In this document: positions 55,648 to 63,140 of the stretch, piece by piece
Layout of the letters: every line of letters starts with the position of its first letter
Position numbering within the stretch: position 1 is the first letter of the stretch
Sequence record: MT446421.1
Reading direction: 5' to 3' (one strand)
DNA from: Escherichia virus TH55
DNA length: 64,000 nt
Notes under the pieces: generated by a model
Databases searched by the model: none
What the model saw: only the letters and a program-made list of their open reading frames with translations
Told to the model about the DNA's origin: nothing
Translations under genes and position numbers: made by a program

Positions 55648-57207
55648 ATGAAAAAGAATGCATTAGTTCAAAAATGGTCCGCTCTGCTGGAAAACGAAGC
55701 TCTTCCGGAAATCGTTGGTGCTTCTAAACAAGCTATCATCGCTAAAATCTTTGAAAACCAGGAACAAGATATTCTGACCGCTCCTGAATACCGTGACGAA
55801 AAAATCTCCGAAGCATTTGGTTCTTTCCTGACCGAAGCTGAAATCGGTGGTGACCATGGTTATGATGCTACCAATATCGCTGCTGGCCAGACCTCTGGTG
55901 CAGTAACTCAGATTGGGCCGGCAGTTATGGGTATGGTTCGTCGTGCTATCCCACATCTGATTGCGTTTGATATTTGTGGCGTACAGCCTCTGAACAACCC
56001 GACTGGCCAGGTATTTGCCCTGCGTGCAGTTTACGGTAAAGACCCTGTAGCTGCTGGTGCTAAAGAAGCTTTCCACCCGATGTATGCTCCAAATGCTATG
56101 TTCTCTGGTCAGGGCGCTGCTGAGGCTTTCGAAGCTCTGGCTGCAAGCAAAGTTCTTACCGTTGGTAAAATTTATTCTCACTTCTTCGAAGCAACCGGTG
56201 CCGCGCACTTCCAGGCTGTTGAAGCTGTAACCGTTGATGCTGCTGCTACTGATGCCGCTAAACTTGACGCCGAAGTTACCAAACTGCTCGAAGCTGGTAA
56301 GCTGGCCGAAATCGCTGAAGGTATGGCTACCTCTATCGCCGAATTGCAGGAAGGCTTCAACGGTTCTACTGATAACCCGTGGAACGAAATGGGCTTCCGT
56401 ATCGATAAACAAGTTATCGAAGCTAAATCCCGTCAGCTGAAAGCAAGTTACTCCATCGAACTGGCACAGGACCTGCGCGCTGTTCATGGTATGGATGCTG
56501 ATGCCGAATTGAGTGGTATTCTGGCTACCGAAATTATGCTGGAAATCAACCGCGAAGTTATCGATTGGATTAACTACTCCGCACAGGTTGGTAAATCTGG
56601 TATGACCAACACCGTTGGCGCTAAAGCTGGTGTGTTTGACTTCCAGGACCCGATTGATATCCGTGGCGCTCGTTGGGCTGGTGAAAGCTTCAAAGCTTTA
56701 CTGTTCCAGATTGATAAAGAAGCCGCTGAAATCGCTCGTCAGACTGGCCGTGGTGCAGGTAACTTCATCATCGCTTCCCGTAACGTAGTTAACGTACTGG
56801 CTGCAGTTGATACCTCCGTATCTTATGCTGCTCAGGGTCTGGGTAAAGGTTTCAACGTTGACACCACTAAAGCTGTGTTCGCTGGTGTTCTGGGTGGCAA
56901 ATACCGTGTATACATCGACCAGTATGCTCGTGCAGACTATTTCACCATCGGTTACAAAGGCGCTAACGAAATGGATGCTGGTATCTACTACGCACCATAT
57001 GTTGCACTGACCCCGCTGCGTGGCTCTGACCCGAAAAACTTCCAGCCGGTTATGGGCTTCAAAACCCGTTACGGTATCGGTATTAACCCGTTCGCTGACC
57101 CGGTAGCTCAGGCTCCGACCAAGCGCATTCAGAACGGCATGCCAGACATCGTTAACAGCCTCGGCTTGAACGGTTACTTCCGCCGCGTATATGTTAAAGG
57201 AATTTAA
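55648..57207 (+). CDS. 23: major capsid protein gp23
   Basis: 519 aa, gp23-like. Confidence 0.93.
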   Translation: MKKNALVQKWSALLENEALPEIVGASKQAIIAKIFENQEQDILTAPEYRDEKISEAFGSFLTEAEIGGDHGYDATNIAAGQTSGAVTQIGPAVMGMVRRAIPHLIAFDICGVQPLNNPTGQVFALRAVYGKDPVAAGAKEAFHPMYAPNAMFSGQGAAEAFEALAASKVLTVGKIYSHFFEATGAAHFQAVEAVTVDAAATDAAKLDAEVTKLLEAGKLAEIAEGMATSIAELQEGFNGSTDNPWNEMGFRIDKQVIEAKSRQLKASYSIELAQDLRAVHGMDADAELSGILATEIMLEINREVIDWINYSAQVGKSGMTNTVGAKAGVFDFQDPIDIRGARWAGESFKALLFQIDKEAAEIARQTGRGAGNFIIASRNVVNVLAAVDTSVSYAAQGLGKGFNVDTTKAVFAGVLGGKYRVYIDQYARADYFTIGYKGANEMDAGIYYAPYVALTPLRGSDPKNFQPVMGFKTRYGIGINPFADPVAQAPTKRIQNGMPDIVNSLGLNGYFRRVYVKGI

Positions 57208-57230
57208 TCCTAGATTAAGTTAAATAAAAA

Positions 57231-57258
57231 GGGACCCTTGAGGTCCCTTTCTTGTTTT
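57231..57258 (+). terminator. bidirectional rho-independent terminator after gene 23
   Basis: gggacc cttga ggtccc with flanking A5 and T-rich runs. Confidence 0.65.
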
Positions 57259-57539
57259 CATACCATACCATTTAAATGAACTTCTACCCGGCGCTTGATG
57301 AGGTCTCTGAAGTTAACATTGTTTTCTTGAAGTTTCAACCAGTTACCATTTTTATCTTTAGTGTGAGTAGAATAATTACCATTCCACCAGAAATCAGTGT
57401 CATATGCTAAGTTTTCATATTTTTTAACTAGTTTGTTCAGAGCATTACCATTAACACCATTTGGGTATTTGTTGACCAATGTAATAACTTCAATTTCCAA
57501 TTTTTTAAAGGTGTTCAGAAGGAAAGTTGCTTTGTTCAT
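57258..57539 (-). CDS. hypothetical protein on opposite strand between genes 23 and 24
   Basis: 93-aa ORF with its own family-2 early promoter cassette. Confidence 0.5.
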   Translation of the reverse strand: MNKATFLLNTFKKLEIEVITLVNKYPNGVNGNALNKLVKKYENLAYDTDFWWNGNYSTHTKDKNGNWLKLQENNVNFRDLIKRRVEVHLNGMV

Positions 57540-57617: not shown

Positions 57618-57625
57618 TATAAATA
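57618..57625 (+). promoter_or_regulatory. late promoter TATAAATA upstream of gene 24
   Basis: exact TATAAATA, abuts -35 of divergent early promoter. Confidence 0.55.
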
Positions 57626-57651
57626 AAGTATATCACAAAAGGAAAGCGCAA

Positions 57652-58932
57652 ATGGCAAAGATTAACAAATTACTGCGCGAGTCAACTATTACTACCAGCA
57701 ACTCCTTGGGCCGCCCGAATCTTGTTGCTTTGACCCGCGCTACGACTAAATTGATTTACCGCGATATCATCGCTGAACAACGTACTAACCAACCTGTTGC
57801 TGCACTGTATGGTGTTAAATATCTTACTCCTGATAATGAATTCAGTTTCCAGACGGGCGCTACTTATGGAGGCGAAGTCGGTTCTAAAGACCGCACAACT
57901 ATTCCAGAATTAACTACAGCCACTCAGCCTGTGGCTAAAGGCGAATATATAAAATACCAAAATATCGTTTACAAAGCTCTGGTTGATAATCCATTTGCAT
58001 CGACCACAGAAACAGTGTTATCTGATGTTCTGCAAGAAGGTCTTATTGCATCGACTATTCGCCTTGTTCCTGATGCCGCACACACTGAAAAATTCGAAGC
58101 CGGTGATGTTGAAATTAGCAATGCTGTATTCCAGGTTAACAAATGGAATGCTCCGGTTAAAACACGTAAATTGAAAACTGCATTAACTGTTGAACTTGCC
58201 CAGGATATGGAAGCAAATGGTTTTAATGCTCCTGCTTTCTTAGAAGACCTGCTTGCCACTATTATGGCAGATGAAATTAACAAAGATGTTCTTCAGTCTC
58301 TTATTACCGTTTCCAAGCGTTATAAAGTAACTGGCGTTTCTGACAATGGCACCATCGATTTAACATACGATGCAGCCCCAGAAGGTGCACGTAAACTGTA
58401 CGAACTGGTTTGCGAAATGAACTCCGAAATTCAGAAAACTACATCTTATTCCGGTACCTTTGTTGTTGCCTCTAGCCGTGTTGCTGCTATGTTGGCCGGT
58501 TCTGGTTGGTTGAAACACAGACCAGAAGACGAACAGTGGCTCCCCGAAACAGCGTACGGTTATTTGATTAATGGCCTCCCTGTATTCTGTGATGTTAACA
58601 GTCCATTGGATTATGTAACTGTTGGTGTTAAAGAAAATTACGGCGGAAACGAAGTCGTAGGCGCAATTTTCTATGCTCCTTATACCGAAGGCCTGGACTT
58701 GGATGATGAAGAGCACGTTGGTGCGTTTAAGGTCATTGTGGACCCAGACAGCTTGCAGCCATCTATCTCTCTGATGGTTCGTTACGCACTTTCAGCTAAC
58801 CCGTACACCGTTGCTAAAGACGATAAAGAAGCTCGTATTATCGATGCAACCAATATGGATTTAATGGCCGGTCAGAGCAATATGTCTTATCTGCTCGGTG
58901 TTAAACTTCCGCCAATCATTTATGAGGCGTAA
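57652..58932 (+). CDS. 24: head vertex protein gp24 (copy 1)
   Basis: 426 aa; gp23-like fold protein after gene 23. Confidence 0.88.
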   Translation: MAKINKLLRESTITTSNSLGRPNLVALTRATTKLIYRDIIAEQRTNQPVAALYGVKYLTPDNEFSFQTGATYGGEVGSKDRTTIPELTTATQPVAKGEYIKYQNIVYKALVDNPFASTTETVLSDVLQEGLIASTIRLVPDAAHTEKFEAGDVEISNAVFQVNKWNAPVKTRKLKTALTVELAQDMEANGFNAPAFLEDLLATIMADEINKDVLQSLITVSKRYKVTGVSDNGTIDLTYDAAPEGARKLYELVCEMNSEIQKTTSYSGTFVVASSRVAAMLAGSGWLKHRPEDEQWLPETAYGYLINGLPVFCDVNSPLDYVTVGVKENYGGNEVVGAIFYAPYTEGLDLDDEEHVGAFKVIVDPDSLQPSISLMVRYALSANPYTVAKDDKEARIIDATNMDLMAGQSNMSYLLGVKLPPIIYEA

Positions 58933-60216
58933 ATGCAAAAGATTAATGCACTAATTCACGAATCAACATTAACGGCGGCCAACCAGGTCGCCCGTCCTAA
59001 TTTGCTTTCTTATACTCAAGCCACGAATAAACGAATTTTTAAAGCGCTCGTGGCCGAACAGAAAACTACCCAGCCTGTTGCAGCGCTGTATGGTGTTCGT
59101 GTTCTGAACCCAGATGATAAAATGACTTATCTCGGTGGAGCAACATTTGCAGGTCAGATTGGTATGTTCGAGCGTAAGAATATTCCAGAATTTACAAACA
59201 AAGACGAAGCTTATGCAGTCGGCGATATGTTCCAGTTTGAAAGTGTTGTGTTCAAAGTTTTGGAAGCATCCCCATTCGCCGGTACACTCGAAACTGATTT
59301 AGGTGAAGTTATTTCTGAAGCCATTGCTGCTGGGCATATAAGAATGATGTCAGATGCTGCTTTCACTGATAAATTTGAAAAGGGGCATCCTGAAATTGCT
59401 GAAGCTGGTTTTCGTATCGATAAATGGCAGACTGAAGTTAAATCCAGAAAGTTGAAAACTTCTTTAACTGTCGAGCTTGCCCAGGACCTGGAAGCAAACG
59501 GTTTTGATGCAACAGACTTCATCGATAATATTCTCGGCATTCAAATGGCAGAGGAAATTAATAAGGATGTATTGCAATCCCTTATTACTGTTAGTTCCCG
59601 CTTCAAGGTGCAAGGTGTTTCGGAAAAAGGTGTATTGAATCTTACTGACCCGAAATATGATAACGCGCAGGACCGCGCGCGAACCCTGTATTATTATATG
59701 TGTGAAATGAATTCTGCAGTTCAACGTCAGACTTCGTTTGCTGGTACATATGCGGTTGCTTCTTCCCGTTGTGCAGCTATTTTAGCCGCTTCTGGCTGGG
59801 TTGAGAAAAAGGAAGACCAGGATGAATTGGCCTATGGTGTTCTGAAGAACGGTTTGCCTCTTTACGCTGATATGAATAGTCCATGTGATTATGTTATTGT
59901 TGGTGTAAATGCAGATATGGGTGAAGGTCAGACGGTCGCATCTTTGTATTATGCGCCTTATACGGAAGGGCTTAGCGAAGTTGATGATGAGGGTGATACC
60001 TCGGTTGGGGAATTCAAGGTTATTGTTGACCCTGAAAGCTTACAGCCTACGGTTGCACTGTTAGCTCGTTATGCTTTGACTGCGAACCCTTACACCGTTG
60101 CTAAAGATGATAAAGAAGCTCGCCTTATTGATGGAGCTGATATGGATAAGATGGCTAACCAAAGTCAATTGAGTTCTTATCTTGGTGTTAAACTTCCACC
60201 GCTGGAAAAAGAATAA
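58933..60216 (+). CDS. 24: head vertex protein gp24 paralog (copy 2)
   Basis: 427 aa; colinear similarity to copy 1 (MQKINALIHESTLTAANQVARPNL vs MAKINKLLRESTITTSNSLGRPNL; both end PYTVAKDDKEAR.ID). Confidence 0.8.
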   Translation: MQKINALIHESTLTAANQVARPNLLSYTQATNKRIFKALVAEQKTTQPVAALYGVRVLNPDDKMTYLGGATFAGQIGMFERKNIPEFTNKDEAYAVGDMFQFESVVFKVLEASPFAGTLETDLGEVISEAIAAGHIRMMSDAAFTDKFEKGHPEIAEAGFRIDKWQTEVKSRKLKTSLTVELAQDLEANGFDATDFIDNILGIQMAEEINKDVLQSLITVSSRFKVQGVSEKGVLNLTDPKYDNAQDRARTLYYYMCEMNSAVQRQTSFAGTYAVASSRCAAILAASGWVEKKEDQDELAYGVLKNGLPLYADMNSPCDYVIVGVNADMGEGQTVASLYYAPYTEGLSEVDDEGDTSVGEFKVIVDPESLQPTVALLARYALTANPYTVAKDDKEARLIDGADMDKMANQSQLSSYLGVKLPPLEKE

Positions 60217-60237
60217 GGGCCTTGCGGCCCTTTTTTT
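60217..60237 (+). terminator. rho-independent terminator after gene 24 copy 2
   Basis: gggcc ttgc ggccc plus T7. Confidence 0.7.
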
Positions 60238-61243
60238 ATTCACTAATTAATGCAATCCAAACATGTCTTAATGTTTCTCTTACATTTGCGATAAGTTGCT
60301 TTTTAACTTCAACAGGATTTTCTGTTTGGGTCAATTCAAGGCCTTCACGACCCGCTTCTTCCAGGATATCCTGGACAGTCAAACCCATTACCTTCCCAAA
60401 ATCCTTAGGTGTTACTTCCCCAATCTTACTGATAACATTATTGATACGGTTGACAGTCACATAATCAGTAAACTTCCATAAAACATCCAGGTCTTCCTGG
60501 GACAACACAACAGCAGCCTTAATAGGCTTATCAGACTTTTTCTTTTCGCTGAATTTAGAGTTCTTACATTTAATCGCTACACGCTCGCCGTTAGGTAACC
60601 ATGCAGGAACATCAGGTTTTAATACAAATCCTTCAGCAGTGAATACTTTACCTTCCACCTTTGCATCAAAATCAGTGGTATTTGCTGTAGTCAATCCTGC
60701 GTTATCCACTGTAAAATTGTAATCAGGGACCACAGAATCCAGGTCATTAGGGAGCTTAATCAAGTCTTCAAAGCTACCTGTGGCCAGGCGTGGGGCAACT
60801 TTAAACTTATGAATAATACAAAAGGCTTCCATAAGTGTGTCAGTCAGGACGGATTCAGAGCCATCTTCCTTAGTAACGCGGATATCAAACACATAGAAAT
60901 CTTTATCGCCGTAATCCACATTCTTCTGAATACCTGTACCAGCAAACTCGCCATAAATCTGGTAAGCCTGGTAATTAATATCCTGTAAAAGTTTCTGCAC
61001 AGATTTAATAGAATCTGCGTAGTTCTTTAATACAATTTCATAACCATAGAAATCTTCTGCAGGTAGAATAGGTCCAGTGCGTTTCGCGCATGTCACATTG
61101 TCTTGTTCAATGATTAAACTAAAGTTGGTACCATGAATCTTTTCACGAGCTACCCATTCACCGCTGGTGAAGCCTTGCAGGCGAATCTTTTCAATGAACT
61201 TGTTATTATAGTGATTTTCAAGGCTGTTGTATTTCTTAAACAT
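60236..61243 (-). CDS. rnlB: RNA ligase 2
   Basis: 335 aa; [19 protein letters not shown]...[14 protein letters not shown] (ligase lysine motif), ...[22 protein letters not shown] matches T4 Rnl2. Confidence 0.9.
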
Positions 61244-62006: not shown

Positions 62007-63140
62007 TTAATAAACGTAATCGTATATAATACCAGTTTCTAAAGCGGTGCGATGAATAACTCGACCATTACGAGATTCTTGTACATCAACCTCTGGATAG
62101 TCGGTAATCATTTTTTGAAGTGTGTATCGGTGCAAATAATACGGGCTATCTGGGTCATCAGTTTTCCAGTCTTGTCCGGCAAGAGTCATTTTCTGAATTT
62201 CATCCATAACCCACCAACCACACCAGATATAAGCTGAATTACGTACTGGCAATGGGTGAATATATGGTAATTCGCCATCTGGAACTGGTGCGACTTTAGC
62301 CGTGACTGTTACATTACCAGTTTTGGTAACGGTTACAGGGTTATAATCTGTAGCAGATACAACAACAGAAACTTCAATTAACTGGGAACCTTCGGCGCTT
62401 GTATCGATTGCTAAAGTATCCGTGGTACCAGCGACTGGTGAACCATCTTTCTTCCAAGAATAGGCAAAAGTAGCACCAGCAGGCGCACCGGCTACAGTAG
62501 CTTTAAAAGAAGCCGGAGTTCCTTCAGGAACATTAATAGAGGTCGGTGCTAAAGTAACAGAAACACCCGACATAGTTTTCTTAACAAAAGTTACCGCAGC
62601 TCCTTTAGATGCGGTGCCATTATTATAATCGGGTGCAGAAACAGTAACTTCACAGTTCAATGTATAATTTGCTTCTGCTGATTCGGTGACGGTAATAGTT
62701 TTACCAGTTTGACCTGCGATTACGCTAGTGTTACGTTTCCAAACGTAAGCGATTGTTGCACCAGAAGGAGCGCCTGTCACGTTAGCAGTAACAACTTGAG
62801 ATTGTCCTATTTCTTTAGTAACAGAGGCTGGGTCTAAAGTCAGCGTGATTGCCGGCATTGTTTTATTCTGGATAGTTAAAGTCGTCTCAGCCTCAGCAGT
62901 TTCCGGTTCGCCGTCCGCTGGTGTAGTTGTTGCAACAACTTTAATAGTCTTACTGCCTGCTGGGCCAACAGCGACATAAGCCATTGCTGCAGTCACAGAA
63001 GATTGAGGAACGCCATCAACGGTCCATACAAATGATTCAACACCTTCAGCTGCAGCACCAGAGCCGGTTGCAGTGAAATTGGTTGTTGCTCCAATAACGG
63101 CCGTAGCCGCCAAAGGAGCAATAGCTACGGTATAAGCCAT
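62007..63140 (-). CDS. hoc: highly immunogenic outer capsid protein Hoc
   Basis: 377 aa; repeated Ig-like T/S/A/V-rich modules and C-terminal capsid-binding region; position after rnlB. Confidence 0.8.
   Translation of the reverse strand: MAYTVAIAPLAATAVIGATTNFTATGSGAAAEGVESFVWTVDGVPQSSVTAAMAYVAVGPAGSKTIKVVATTTPADGEPETAEAETTLTIQNKTMPAITLTLDPASVTKEIGQSQVVTANVTGAPSGATIAYVWKRNTSVIAGQTGKTITVTESAEANYTLNCEVTVSAPDYNNGTASKGAAVTFVKKTMSGVSVTLAPTSINVPEGTPASFKATVAGAPAGATFAYSWKKDGSPVAGTTDTLAIDTSAEGSQLIEVSVVVSATDYNPVTVTKTGNVTVTAKVAPVPDGELPYIHPLPVRNSAYIWCGWWVMDEIQKMTLAGQDWKTDDPDSPYYLHRYTLQKMITDYPEVDVQESRNGRVIHRTALETGIIYDYVY

Follow-up and report, generated by a model that had tools for sequence, protein, structure and literature searches.

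The head of bacteriophage T4 is the reference system for the building of a large prolate capsid, and all 11 of its non-portal vertices are made by one protein, gp24, encoded by a single gene 24 located between gene 23 and rnlB. The vertex protein has been proposed to derive from a duplication of gene 23 (PMC9958956, PMC10580926), and it is cleaved after Glu10, losing 10 N-terminal residues (PMC9958956, PMC9546572). Some T4-like phages carry two gene 24 copies in a row, and this arrangement is already annotated in public records and is not new: the two genes are labeled 24(1) and 24(2) in VR7, 24 and 24b in JS98 and IME08, capsid vertex protein I and II in VR5, VR20, VR25, VR26 and CJ20, and head vertex protein I and II in Salmonella phage CGG4-1. 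A full-text literature search found no published discussion of the two copies and retrieved neither expression or proteomic data nor structures for phages that have both, and a PDB search with both copies returned T4 gp24 as the only match, with no structure from a two-copy phage.

The pair described here lies in a 64,000-nucleotide stretch of Escherichia virus TH55 (MT446421.1), the whole of which is referred to as the window and matches Escherichia phage UPEC07/TH22 (Gaprivervirus) at 100% identity. Its features are collected in Table 1, where the two genes are termed copy 1 and copy 2. The initial annotation had reported two adjacent, co-oriented reading frames, paralogous along their length, of gp24 type and both following gene 23, against a single gene 24 in T4. 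The frames were found exactly as given, with the same limits, lengths and strand, and the single gene of T4 was confirmed; the order relative to gene 23 also stands, with the refinement that a minus-strand ORF of 93 aa (57258-57539) and a terminator lie in between. On the right-hand side, rnlB is the neighbor of the pair just as it is of gene 24 in T4, and the pair sits in the late head-gene cluster, with gene 23 upstream, convergent rnlB downstream and a late promoter in front.

Table 1. Positions of genes, expression signals and protease motifs at the gene 24 pair, in window coordinates
Feature	Position	Strand	Basis or remark
Gene 23, major capsid protein	55648..57207	+	519 aa
Hairpin and T-run terminator 3' of gene 23	57228..57250	both strands	terminator scan; parts gene 23 from the vertex-gene operon
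T4-type late promoter TATAAATA	57618..57625	+	26 nt upstream of copy 1 ATG
Shine-Dalgarno AGGAAA of copy 1	57640..57645	+	read from sequence
Gene 24(1), copy 1, capsid vertex protein, T4 gp24 orthologue	57652..58932	+	426 aa; ORF and homology
T4 gp24 prohead-protease motif L-R-E, copy 1 codons 8-10	57673..57681	+	N-terminus MAKINKLLRE/ST; cleavage predicted
Shine-Dalgarno GAGG of copy 2	58924..58927	+	inside last copy 1 codons, 5 nt before copy 2 ATG
TAA/ATG junction, copy 1 stop abutting copy 2 start	58930..58935	+	same reading frame
Gene 24(2), copy 2, deep-branching gp24 paralogue	58933..60216	+	427 aa; ORF and homology
(L/I)-x-E protease motif I-H-E, copy 2 codons 8-10	58954..58962	+	N-terminus MQKINALIHE/ST; cleavage predicted
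Hairpin and T-run terminator, bidirectional	60215..60232	both strands	common to vertex-gene operon and convergent rnlB
rnlB, RNA ligase 2	60236..61243	-	convergent with gene 24 pair

The paralogy of the two proteins was borne out by BLASTP, which aligned them from first to last residue at 55% identity, with 75% positives (E = 3e-173, well outside chance similarity). Both match Pfam PF07068 (Gp23 family) along their entire length (E about 1e-97). Residues 1-424 of the T4 gp24 structure 1YUE are matched by copy 1 at E = 1e-193 and by copy 2 at E = 4e-148, copy 2 being collinear with T4 gp24 over this span with three small indels only. Identity to T4 gp24 is 69% for copy 1 and 56% for copy 2, and each copy is 28-29% identical to the window's own gene 23 product, in the C-terminal 250 residues only. 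Both copies are members of the gp24 branch of PF07068, far nearer gp24 than gp23, and an HK97-like fold with an inserted I domain is predicted for each. A 10-residue propeptide motif ending in (L/I)-x-E is present in both (LRE/S and IHE/S), and (L/I)xE followed by serine is kept in all 14 of the copy 2 orthologues examined.

Matches to the late-promoter motif number 20 in the window, with 5 expected, and none lies within 57626-60216; the promoter in front of copy 1 is the sole one from the gene 23 terminator to the end of copy 2, and its position is kept in 10/10 two-copy genomes examined. The Shine-Dalgarno sequence of copy 1 is kept as aggaaagcgca in Gaprivervirus, Dhakavirus, Gelderlandvirus and Marfavirus, and the GAGG of copy 2 in the first three of these. 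At each of the 14 two-copy loci, the copy 1 stop codon and the copy 2 start codon abut, overlap by 1 or 4 nt, or are separated by a 1 nt gap (in one locus, L026), a layout that permits translational coupling of the two genes. Every lineage examined has the pair set between a single late promoter and a single terminator, with a stop/start junction of this kind inside it, so that both proteins are expected to be made together late in infection: transcription from 57618 to the terminator at 60215 would yield copy 1 and then, by way of the stop/start junction with its embedded ribosome-binding site, copy 2. Additional head-fibre or decoration genes downstream were considered as a correlate of copy 2, which was rejected as inconsistent across genomes; such genes are found in JS10, VR7, FBB1 and some contigs, and are absent from the window, the S16 group and F48.

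Copy 2 was found in about 120-125 of 1,418 gp24-bearing phage records from at least five genera, so that the two-copy state accounts for about 9% of sequenced gp24-bearing phages. Confirmed two-copy genera are Gaprivervirus, Dhakavirus, Gelderlandvirus, Marfavirus and Roskildevirus, and four metagenomic contigs also carry the pair. The arrangement is the conserved state in this lineage and in at least four other genera, in about 125 records, an outcome that the initial annotation had itself named as counting against its reading. In each of the 14 loci examined, genomes and contigs alike, copy 2 directly follows a copy-1-type gene. The records at least 80% identical to copy 1 and to copy 2 number 92 and 93, and from these matching counts neither core-type copy appears to occur alone; a copy-2-type gene as sole gp24 was found neither in the phage collection nor in a set of 5.8 billion proteins in which contexts were checked. 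In Dhakavirus MX01 the entire pair has been swapped for a single foreign gp24, with a gp23 96.5% identical to that of its relatives.

Identity between orthologues falls across genera, from 96 through 89, 84 and 74 to 62% for copy 1 and from 98 through 91, 84 and 80 to 69% for copy 2, while copy 1 and copy 2 inside one genome are always 53-57% identical, in the five genera and the four contigs. The distance matrices of the two copies co-diverge (r = 0.95). In the trees, all of them neighbor-joining and with about 50% support at the deepest node, copy 1 is placed within the T4-type radiation, and it alone joins the single-copy gp24 genes of the Tevenvirinae with the other copy left outside, as a T4 orthologue does. 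Copy 2 is placed below the entire Tevenvirinae gp24 radiation, in a separate and deep clade with 94-100% bootstrap support. A clade exclusive to copy 1 and copy 2 was recovered in 0/200 bootstrap replicates, and the closest clade tested in 1/300. Copy 2 is as near to outgroup proteins as copy 1 is (45 versus 43% identity to Krischvirus, 50.7 versus 50.5% to MP1), and is therefore not a fast-evolving recent duplicate. The divergence of copy 2 predates the radiation of gp24 genes in the Tevenvirinae and the pair is ancient, one old tandem duplication being its simplest origin. As a further stand-in for the phage phylogeny, rnlB proved too mosaic and was abandoned.

The principal competing account of this origin, which bears on origin only and not on function, takes copy 2 as a xenologue, a second gp24 from a distant T4-like lineage that recombined beside the resident gene 24, after which the cassette spread horizontally. 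The copy 2 branch is as deep as, or deeper than, that of Acinetobacter phage ZZ1 gp24, and the history of the cassette is at odds with that of gp23: the copy 1 genes of Gaprivervirus, Dhakavirus, Gelderlandvirus and Marfavirus come together with 99.5% support, whereas the gp23 tree joins Gelderlandvirus with Moonvirus (99% support) and Marfavirus with Karamvirus (85%). Swaps of the cassette or within it are also seen directly, in MX01, in LHE83 and in L024 compared with L028. Against it, no phage or contig in either collection has a copy-2-type gene as its only gp24, and the nearest relative outside the copy 2 clade, Jiaodavirus gp24, is at only 64-65% identity; transfer from a distant lineage is considered rather unlikely. 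Jiaodavirus gp24 itself, in sliding windows, is T4- or copy 1-like at the N-terminus and somewhat copy 2-like in the middle. Its interpretation as a copy 1/copy 2 fusion was set aside, the signal being modest and the trees placing it with Tegunavirus.

Both copies are under strong purifying selection, with dN/dS between 0.04 and 0.075 in copy 1 and between 0.007 and 0.07 in copy 2. Scaled to gp23, single-copy gp24 diverges by 1.84, copy 1 by 1.88 and copy 2 by 1.55; both copies are thus as constrained as single-copy gp24, copy 2 slightly more so, and neither is drifting toward a new role, as the initial annotation had suggested one of them could be. What does distinguish copy 2 is a set of 16 positions at which it has a fixed residue, while copy 1 and single-copy gp24 conserve a different one. 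Positions diagnostic for the two paralogues are, in T4 numbering, 25, 26, 32, 34, 36, 56, 57, 72, 108, 244, 261, 267 and 335. Half of the 16, eight positions, fall within residues 1-81 (Fisher p = 0.006), a segment that in T4 gp24 comprises the N-arm and I-domain linker 1, which make contacts within the pentamer and to the neighboring gp23 hexamer (PMC9546572). Finer mapping of these changes to the N-arm or the I-linker was not significant with 14 copy 2 sequences, and a paired change at positions 25-27 and 66-72, on the two sides of the N-arm/I-linker contact, was apparent among 10 copy 2 sequences but was lost after four divergent ones were added, leaving the wider enrichment in residues 1-81 as the significant one. 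No gp23 column was found that separates two-copy from single-copy genomes, and co-adaptation of gp23 was rejected for want of any gp23 residue specific to two-copy genomes. A change in capsid size was likewise rejected, since the genome lengths of two-copy and single-copy phages overlap completely.

Taken with the distribution and the operon structure, the locus is probably an ancient, conserved two-gene late operon whose products are both paralogues of the T4 head vertex (penton) protein and are not redundant with each other. Both proteins would quite likely enter the prohead shell as penton subunits and be trimmed by the gp21 protease, and the two copies seem, on balance, not to be interchangeable. 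Strong selection on both, with neither core-type seemingly alone, argues that the second protein does something in these capsids that a single gp24 does not, while the MX01 swap indicates that the need for a second vertex protein can be bypassed.

The MX01 swap, in which one gp24 can suffice with Dhakavirus gp23, also speaks for a different functional interpretation, that one copy is enough per capsid and the other is a redundant or conditional spare, serving for instance at another temperature, in another host, or as an altered form that evades a host defence able to recognize the vertex protein; that the VR phages are described as low-temperature phages can be counted in its favor as well. 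Redundant duplicates normally decay or are lost, yet dN/dS is about 0.07 or less for both copies, constraint is relaxed on neither, and neither core-type appears alone in about 92-125 genomes, again by matching record counts. The shared promoter and coupled junction moreover leave no means of differential expression, and a spare copy is regarded as improbable.

Slightly more improbable still is a role for copy 2 outside the pentons, as a minor component of the shell or of assembly, acting near the portal or triggering the prohead protease, for example, with copy 1 alone building the 11 vertices. In T4, gp21 is presumed to become active when gp24 attaches (PMC9958956), which would suit such a role, as would the concentration of fixed copy 2 changes in the N-terminal 81 residues, the site of inter-subunit and inter-capsomer contacts in T4. 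Against it, copy 2 retains the collinearity with T4 gp24 and the gp24-type propeptide and cleavage motif noted above, it is more conserved than copy 1, and no core-type copy 1 appears alone, as would be expected if copy 1 sufficed everywhere. A recent tandem duplication peculiar to this phage or to its genus, in which one copy has begun to diverge, as the initial annotation could be read, would fit two adjacent, co-oriented, in-frame genes of nearly equal length but is very improbable and already refuted by the distribution and the trees, the copies being neither mutual closest relatives nor limited to one shallow lineage, with a constant internal identity across genera and contigs, 0% bootstrap for an exclusive clade, copy 1 nearer to T4 gp24 (69%) than to copy 2 (55%), and equal constraint on both.

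If both paralogues are indeed penton subunits, separate homopentamers on different subsets of the 11 non-portal vertices would be the tentative choice over mixed pentamers of copy 1 and copy 2, the latter arrangement being unlikely; mixed and specialised vertices had both been raised in the initial annotation. A more specific form of the former, also doubtful, would have chemically different vertices in one prolate head, with one paralogue confined, for example, to the lone apical vertex or to a ring of five and its partner at the rest, each forming its own homopentamer through its own N-arm/I-linker contacts. These would be the first position-specific penton paralogues in a tailed-phage capsid, and the 11 "equivalent" vertices of T4-type heads would be distinguishable during assembly. 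All 55 gp24* subunits of T4 are conformationally alike (PMC9546572), so that it is not obvious why the structure would need position-specific pentons, and the swap in MX01, with gp23 nearly unchanged, indicates that one kind of vertex protein is enough for what is essentially the same lattice of gp23.

The pair is a pointer to an unexplored detail and not a discovery, the arrangement being known. Two different vertex proteins have nevertheless been kept through the radiation of a whole subfamily in about 9% of gp24-bearing phages, and the question of why bears on vertex recognition in assembly, on capsid stability and on the engineering of T4-like heads for display or delivery.

In comparison with known systems, T4 gp24 (1YUE; in situ 5VF3, 7VS5, 7VRT and 8GMO) is like both copies in length, gene position, late promoter and 10-residue propeptide motif. 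T4 and most T4-like genera have one gene 24, whereas here two non-identical genes lie in one operon, and copy 2 differs from T4 gp24 in forming a distinct clade and in being found only together with copy 1. Genes 24(1) and 24(2) of VR7 are the same two genes, 96-98% identical and of identical layout, as is the pair of JS10, at 89-91% identity; between the annotated pairs of VR7, JS98, IME08, VR5, VR20, VR25, VR26, CJ20 and CGG4-1 and that of the window, nothing material differs. The proposed duplication of gene 23 that gave gp24 offers a further parallel, the pair being another round of duplication in the same capsid-protein family that was kept under purifying selection. However, gp23 and gp24 share about 20-29% identity and play clearly separate roles, in hexamers and pentamers, whereas the two vertex copies share 55% and any division of labor between them is putative.

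The window carries two complete capsid vertex (gp24) genes in tandem, gene 24(1) (copy 1) and gene 24(2) (copy 2). As the initial annotation proposed, the two adjacent ORFs are paralogous, with 55% identity and 75% similarity over their whole length (protein pairwise, E = 3e-173), and the equivalent T4 position indeed holds a single gene 24. Pfam PF07068 aligns with each over its full length, and each also matches residues 1-424 of the T4 gp24 structure 1YUE (copy 1, E = 1e-193; copy 2, E = 4e-148); identity to T4 gp24 is 69% for copy 1 and 56% for copy 2. The upstream gene 23 product shares only 28-29% identity with each, confined to the C-terminal 250 residues.

Coordinates of the vertex gene pair and related features, in the window and in comparison loci
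Sequence	Feature	Position	Strand	Remarks
Window	Gene 23	55648-57207		Upstream of the pair
Window	Hairpin terminator	57228-57250		After gene 23; terminator scan
Window	ORF between gene 23 and gene 24(1)	57258-57539	-	93 aa; no Pfam match
Window	T4-type late promoter TATAAATA	57618-57625	+	Only one from gene 23 terminator to copy 2 end
Window	Octamer TATAAATA, examples	44143, 48612, 49111, 50507, 51185, 51272, 51825, 53819, 54771, 55500, 57618	+	
Window	Ribosome-binding site AGGAAA			Downstream of the 57618-57625 promoter; serves copy 1
Window	Copy 1 ORF	57652-58932	+	426 aa
Window	Copy 1 stop/copy 2 start	58930-58935		TAA then ATG, no gap
Window	GAGG			5 nt upstream of copy 2 ATG, within last codons of copy 1
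Window	Copy 2 ORF	58933-60216	+	427 aa
Window	Bidirectional terminator	60215-60232		End of copy 2
Window	Downstream variable region	62007-63140	-	hoc only
VR7 (L002)	rnlB (RNA ligase 2)	6083-7087		
VR7 (L002)	Downstream variable region	7812-8587		Collagen-repeat protein
JS10 (L004)	Downstream variable region	7085-8964	+	'Tail fiber protein' and Hoc-like genes
MX01 (L008)	Single foreign gp24 gene	~3900-5284		
FBB1 (L009)	Downstream variable region	1082-2912	+	Two ORFs directly after copy 2
KP1079 (L010)	Single gp24 gene	2501-3781		
LHE83 (L023)	Copy 1 and copy 2	2478-5042		
Contig L024	Downstream variable region	4890-6427		

With one late promoter, an abutting stop/start junction and a shared terminator, both proteins should be made together. 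The same layout recurs in 10 of 10 two-copy genomes: a single late promoter precedes the pair, none lies inside it, and the stop and start codons adjoin or share 1 or 4 nt; four metagenomic contigs have a like junction, with stop and start 1 base apart in contig L026. The promoter octamer TATAAATA occurs 20 times in the window against 5 expected by chance; the sites point in the direction of the structural genes, which is what a T4-type late region should show. The small ORF between gene 23 and gene 24(1) is labelled 'hypothetical' in UPEC07, VR7 and JS10, and in T4 a homing endonuclease gene fills the same slot on the same strand.

The pair exists as described, is nothing unusual in its lineage, and was annotated before. 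Its region is 100% identical to Escherichia phages UPEC07 (MW250787) and TH22 (Gaprivervirus, Tevenvirinae), and the UPEC07 record labels both genes "capsid vertex protein". The VR7 record, deposited in 2010, names 24(1) and 24(2); the VR5, VR20, VR25, VR26 and CJ20 records list capsid vertex protein I and II; the JS98 and IME08 records call the second gene 24b; and that of Salmonella phage CGG4-1 gives head vertex protein I and II. The arrangement was therefore already on record, and, being confirmed in five genera (Gaprivervirus, Dhakavirus, Gelderlandvirus [the S16 group], Marfavirus and Roskildevirus), the duplication singled out in the initial annotation is the conserved state of its lineage, an outcome which that annotation had itself named as refuting its proposal. 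GenBank labels for gp24 genes are inconsistent, including 'major head protein', 'hypothetical protein', 'homing endonuclease', 24b, 24(2), and I/II in either order. A literature search that covered few subscription papers, and neither the JS98 nor the VR7 genome paper, found none that addresses the function of the vertex pair and turned up no transcript or protein measurements for it. Added here is that copy 2 is ancient, is seen only downstream of copy 1, is constrained like any gp24, and is exchangeable as part of a cassette.

In a tblastn census, which consists of summary counts rather than a genome-by-genome table, about 1,418 phage records contain a gp24 homologue and about 120 give two strong matches with either copy as query. 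The most divergent copy 2, from Erwinia phage FBB1, found copy 2 orthologues at 60% identity or more in 125 records, and the pair was also detected by tblastn in Erwinia phages Cronus and IT22 and a Proteus phage. Only one gp24 is present in Tequatrovirus, Mosigvirus, Moonvirus, Karamvirus, Kanagawavirus, Jiaodavirus, Tegunavirus, Zedzedvirus, Gualtarvirus and Krischvirus. Among 5.8 billion proteins there were 21 copy-2-type clusters (66-100% identity), and in all four contigs inspected, the most divergent included, the copy-2-type gene lies directly downstream of a copy-1-type gene. None of the 14 loci inspected carried copy 2 alone, and matching numbers of records at least 80% identical by tblastn (92 for copy 1, 93 for copy 2) suggest that neither core-type copy occurs by itself.

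The two copies make up separate orthologous series across the five genera, with identities to UPEC07 for copy 1 and copy 2, respectively, of 96% and 98% in Gaprivervirus, 89% and 91% in Dhakavirus, 84% and 84% in Gelderlandvirus, 74% and 80% in Marfavirus, and 62% and 69% in Roskildevirus; within any one of the 14 genomes, the two share 52.6-57.5%. In bootstrapped neighbour-joining trees (Kimura-corrected distances, not maximum likelihood), copy 2 is monophyletic at 94% with gp23 as root and at 100% in a gp24-only alignment, and an exclusive clade of both copies receives 0%. Copy 1 of four genera forms one group (99.5%) within the T4-type radiation; the branch to copy 2 leaves the tree deeper than any Tevenvirinae gp24, close to Acinetobacter phage ZZ1, with support of only ~50% at the deepest node. 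Copy 2 is as close to outgroups as copy 1 (Krischvirus, 45% versus 43%; MP1, 50.7% versus 50.5%), and its depth is therefore no artefact of fast evolution. On these trees and identities, copy 1 is the gene 24 orthologue and copy 2 an old paralogue. The pair would be explained most simply by a single tandem duplication that preceded the Tevenvirinae radiation, with loss or replacement occurring repeatedly afterwards. Acquisition of copy 2 from an unsampled lineage is a less likely origin, no lineage with copy 2 alone having been found among the phage records and metagenomic contigs examined. The single gp24 of Klebsiella phage KP1079 (Jiaodavirus) has a mosaic look: residues 1-60 are 81-89% identical to T4 or copy 1 versus 56% to copy 2, and residues ~121-330 are closer to copy 2 (61-72% versus 44-67%), so that it may descend from a recombination event between the two paralogue types.

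Replacement has an observed instance in MX01 (Dhakavirus), where identity to JS10 is 95-100% on both flanks, ending ~100 nt short of the gp24 start and resuming at the gp24 stop. Between breakpoints just upstream of that start and at that stop, a single foreign gp24, closest to that of Edwardsiella phage PEi20 (74% identity), replaces both genes. Copy 1 and copy 2 pairwise divergences are closely correlated (r = 0.95). The gp23 tree never unites the two-copy genera, joining instead Gelderlandvirus with Moonvirus (99%), Marfavirus with Karamvirus (85%), and Gaprivervirus/Dhakavirus with Kanagawavirus (98%); this conflicts with the vertex pair, so either the cassette or gp23 moved between lineages. 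Alleles are also shuffled inside the cassette: in LHE83, copy 1 is of the Dhakavirus type (88.7% to UPEC07) and copy 2 of the Gaprivervirus type (94.6%), and the divergence between contigs L024 and L028 rises from 2.3% in gp23 to 5.6% in copy 1 and to 17% in copy 2. The VR7 rnlB gene groups with that of T4 in the rnlB tree, apart from other Gaprivervirus, a placement that indicates recombination immediately downstream of the pair. Gene content downstream of the pair is highly variable, contigs related to FBB1 likewise having two + strand ORFs directly after copy 2, and comparison of JS10, VR7, FBB1 with its related contigs, and the window revealed no regular association with carrying two copies.

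Neither copy shows relaxed constraint, copy 2 being the better conserved of the two (dN/dS 0.007-0.07, versus 0.04-0.075 for copy 1; divergence relative to gp23 1.55, versus 1.88 for copy 1 and 1.84 for single-copy gp24). The (L/I)-x-E motif is retained in both; in T4, cleavage after this motif by the prohead protease removes the first 10 gp24 residues (PMC9958956, PMC9546572). The copies are least similar across T4 residues 58-147 (36-40% identity), a stretch that in T4 runs from I-domain linker 1 through the I domain into linker 2 (PMC9546572 for the boundaries). At 16 positions, all 14 copy 2 sequences share a residue differing from that conserved in copy 1 and single-copy gp24, and 8 of the 16 fall within residues 1-81 (odds ratio 4.6, p = 0.006); finer mapping within this segment had no statistical support with 14 sequences. 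In T4, gp24 residues 11-20 extend onto the adjacent gp23 hexamer, and residues 26-29 pair with the I-domain linker of a neighbouring subunit in the same pentamer (PMC9546572). The N-terminal changes are consistent with altered subunit contacts in copy 2, and the copy 2 changes lean, weakly, towards each paralogue occupying its own pentamers.

Because the two are predicted to be co-expressed, are strongly conserved, co-diverge and are apparently not lost singly, the best-supported reading is that they would be non-interchangeable penton subunits of one capsid. That both are virion penton subunits is probable; for the 11 vertices, their assembly into separate homopentamers can be proposed tentatively, and mixed pentamers seem somewhat less likely. 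Smaller weight is given to one copy being a conditional spare or having a non-vertex role. The pair offers specialists in capsid assembly a tidy, testable question, not a surprise. Several observations argue against a strict structural need for two proteins: column comparison found no gp23 residue specific to two-copy genomes; genome size is the same in these phages, so head size presumably is too; MX01 makes do with a single foreign gp24 beside a gp23 that is 96.5% identical to that of its relatives; and in T4 itself all 55 gp24 subunits look alike (PMC9546572).
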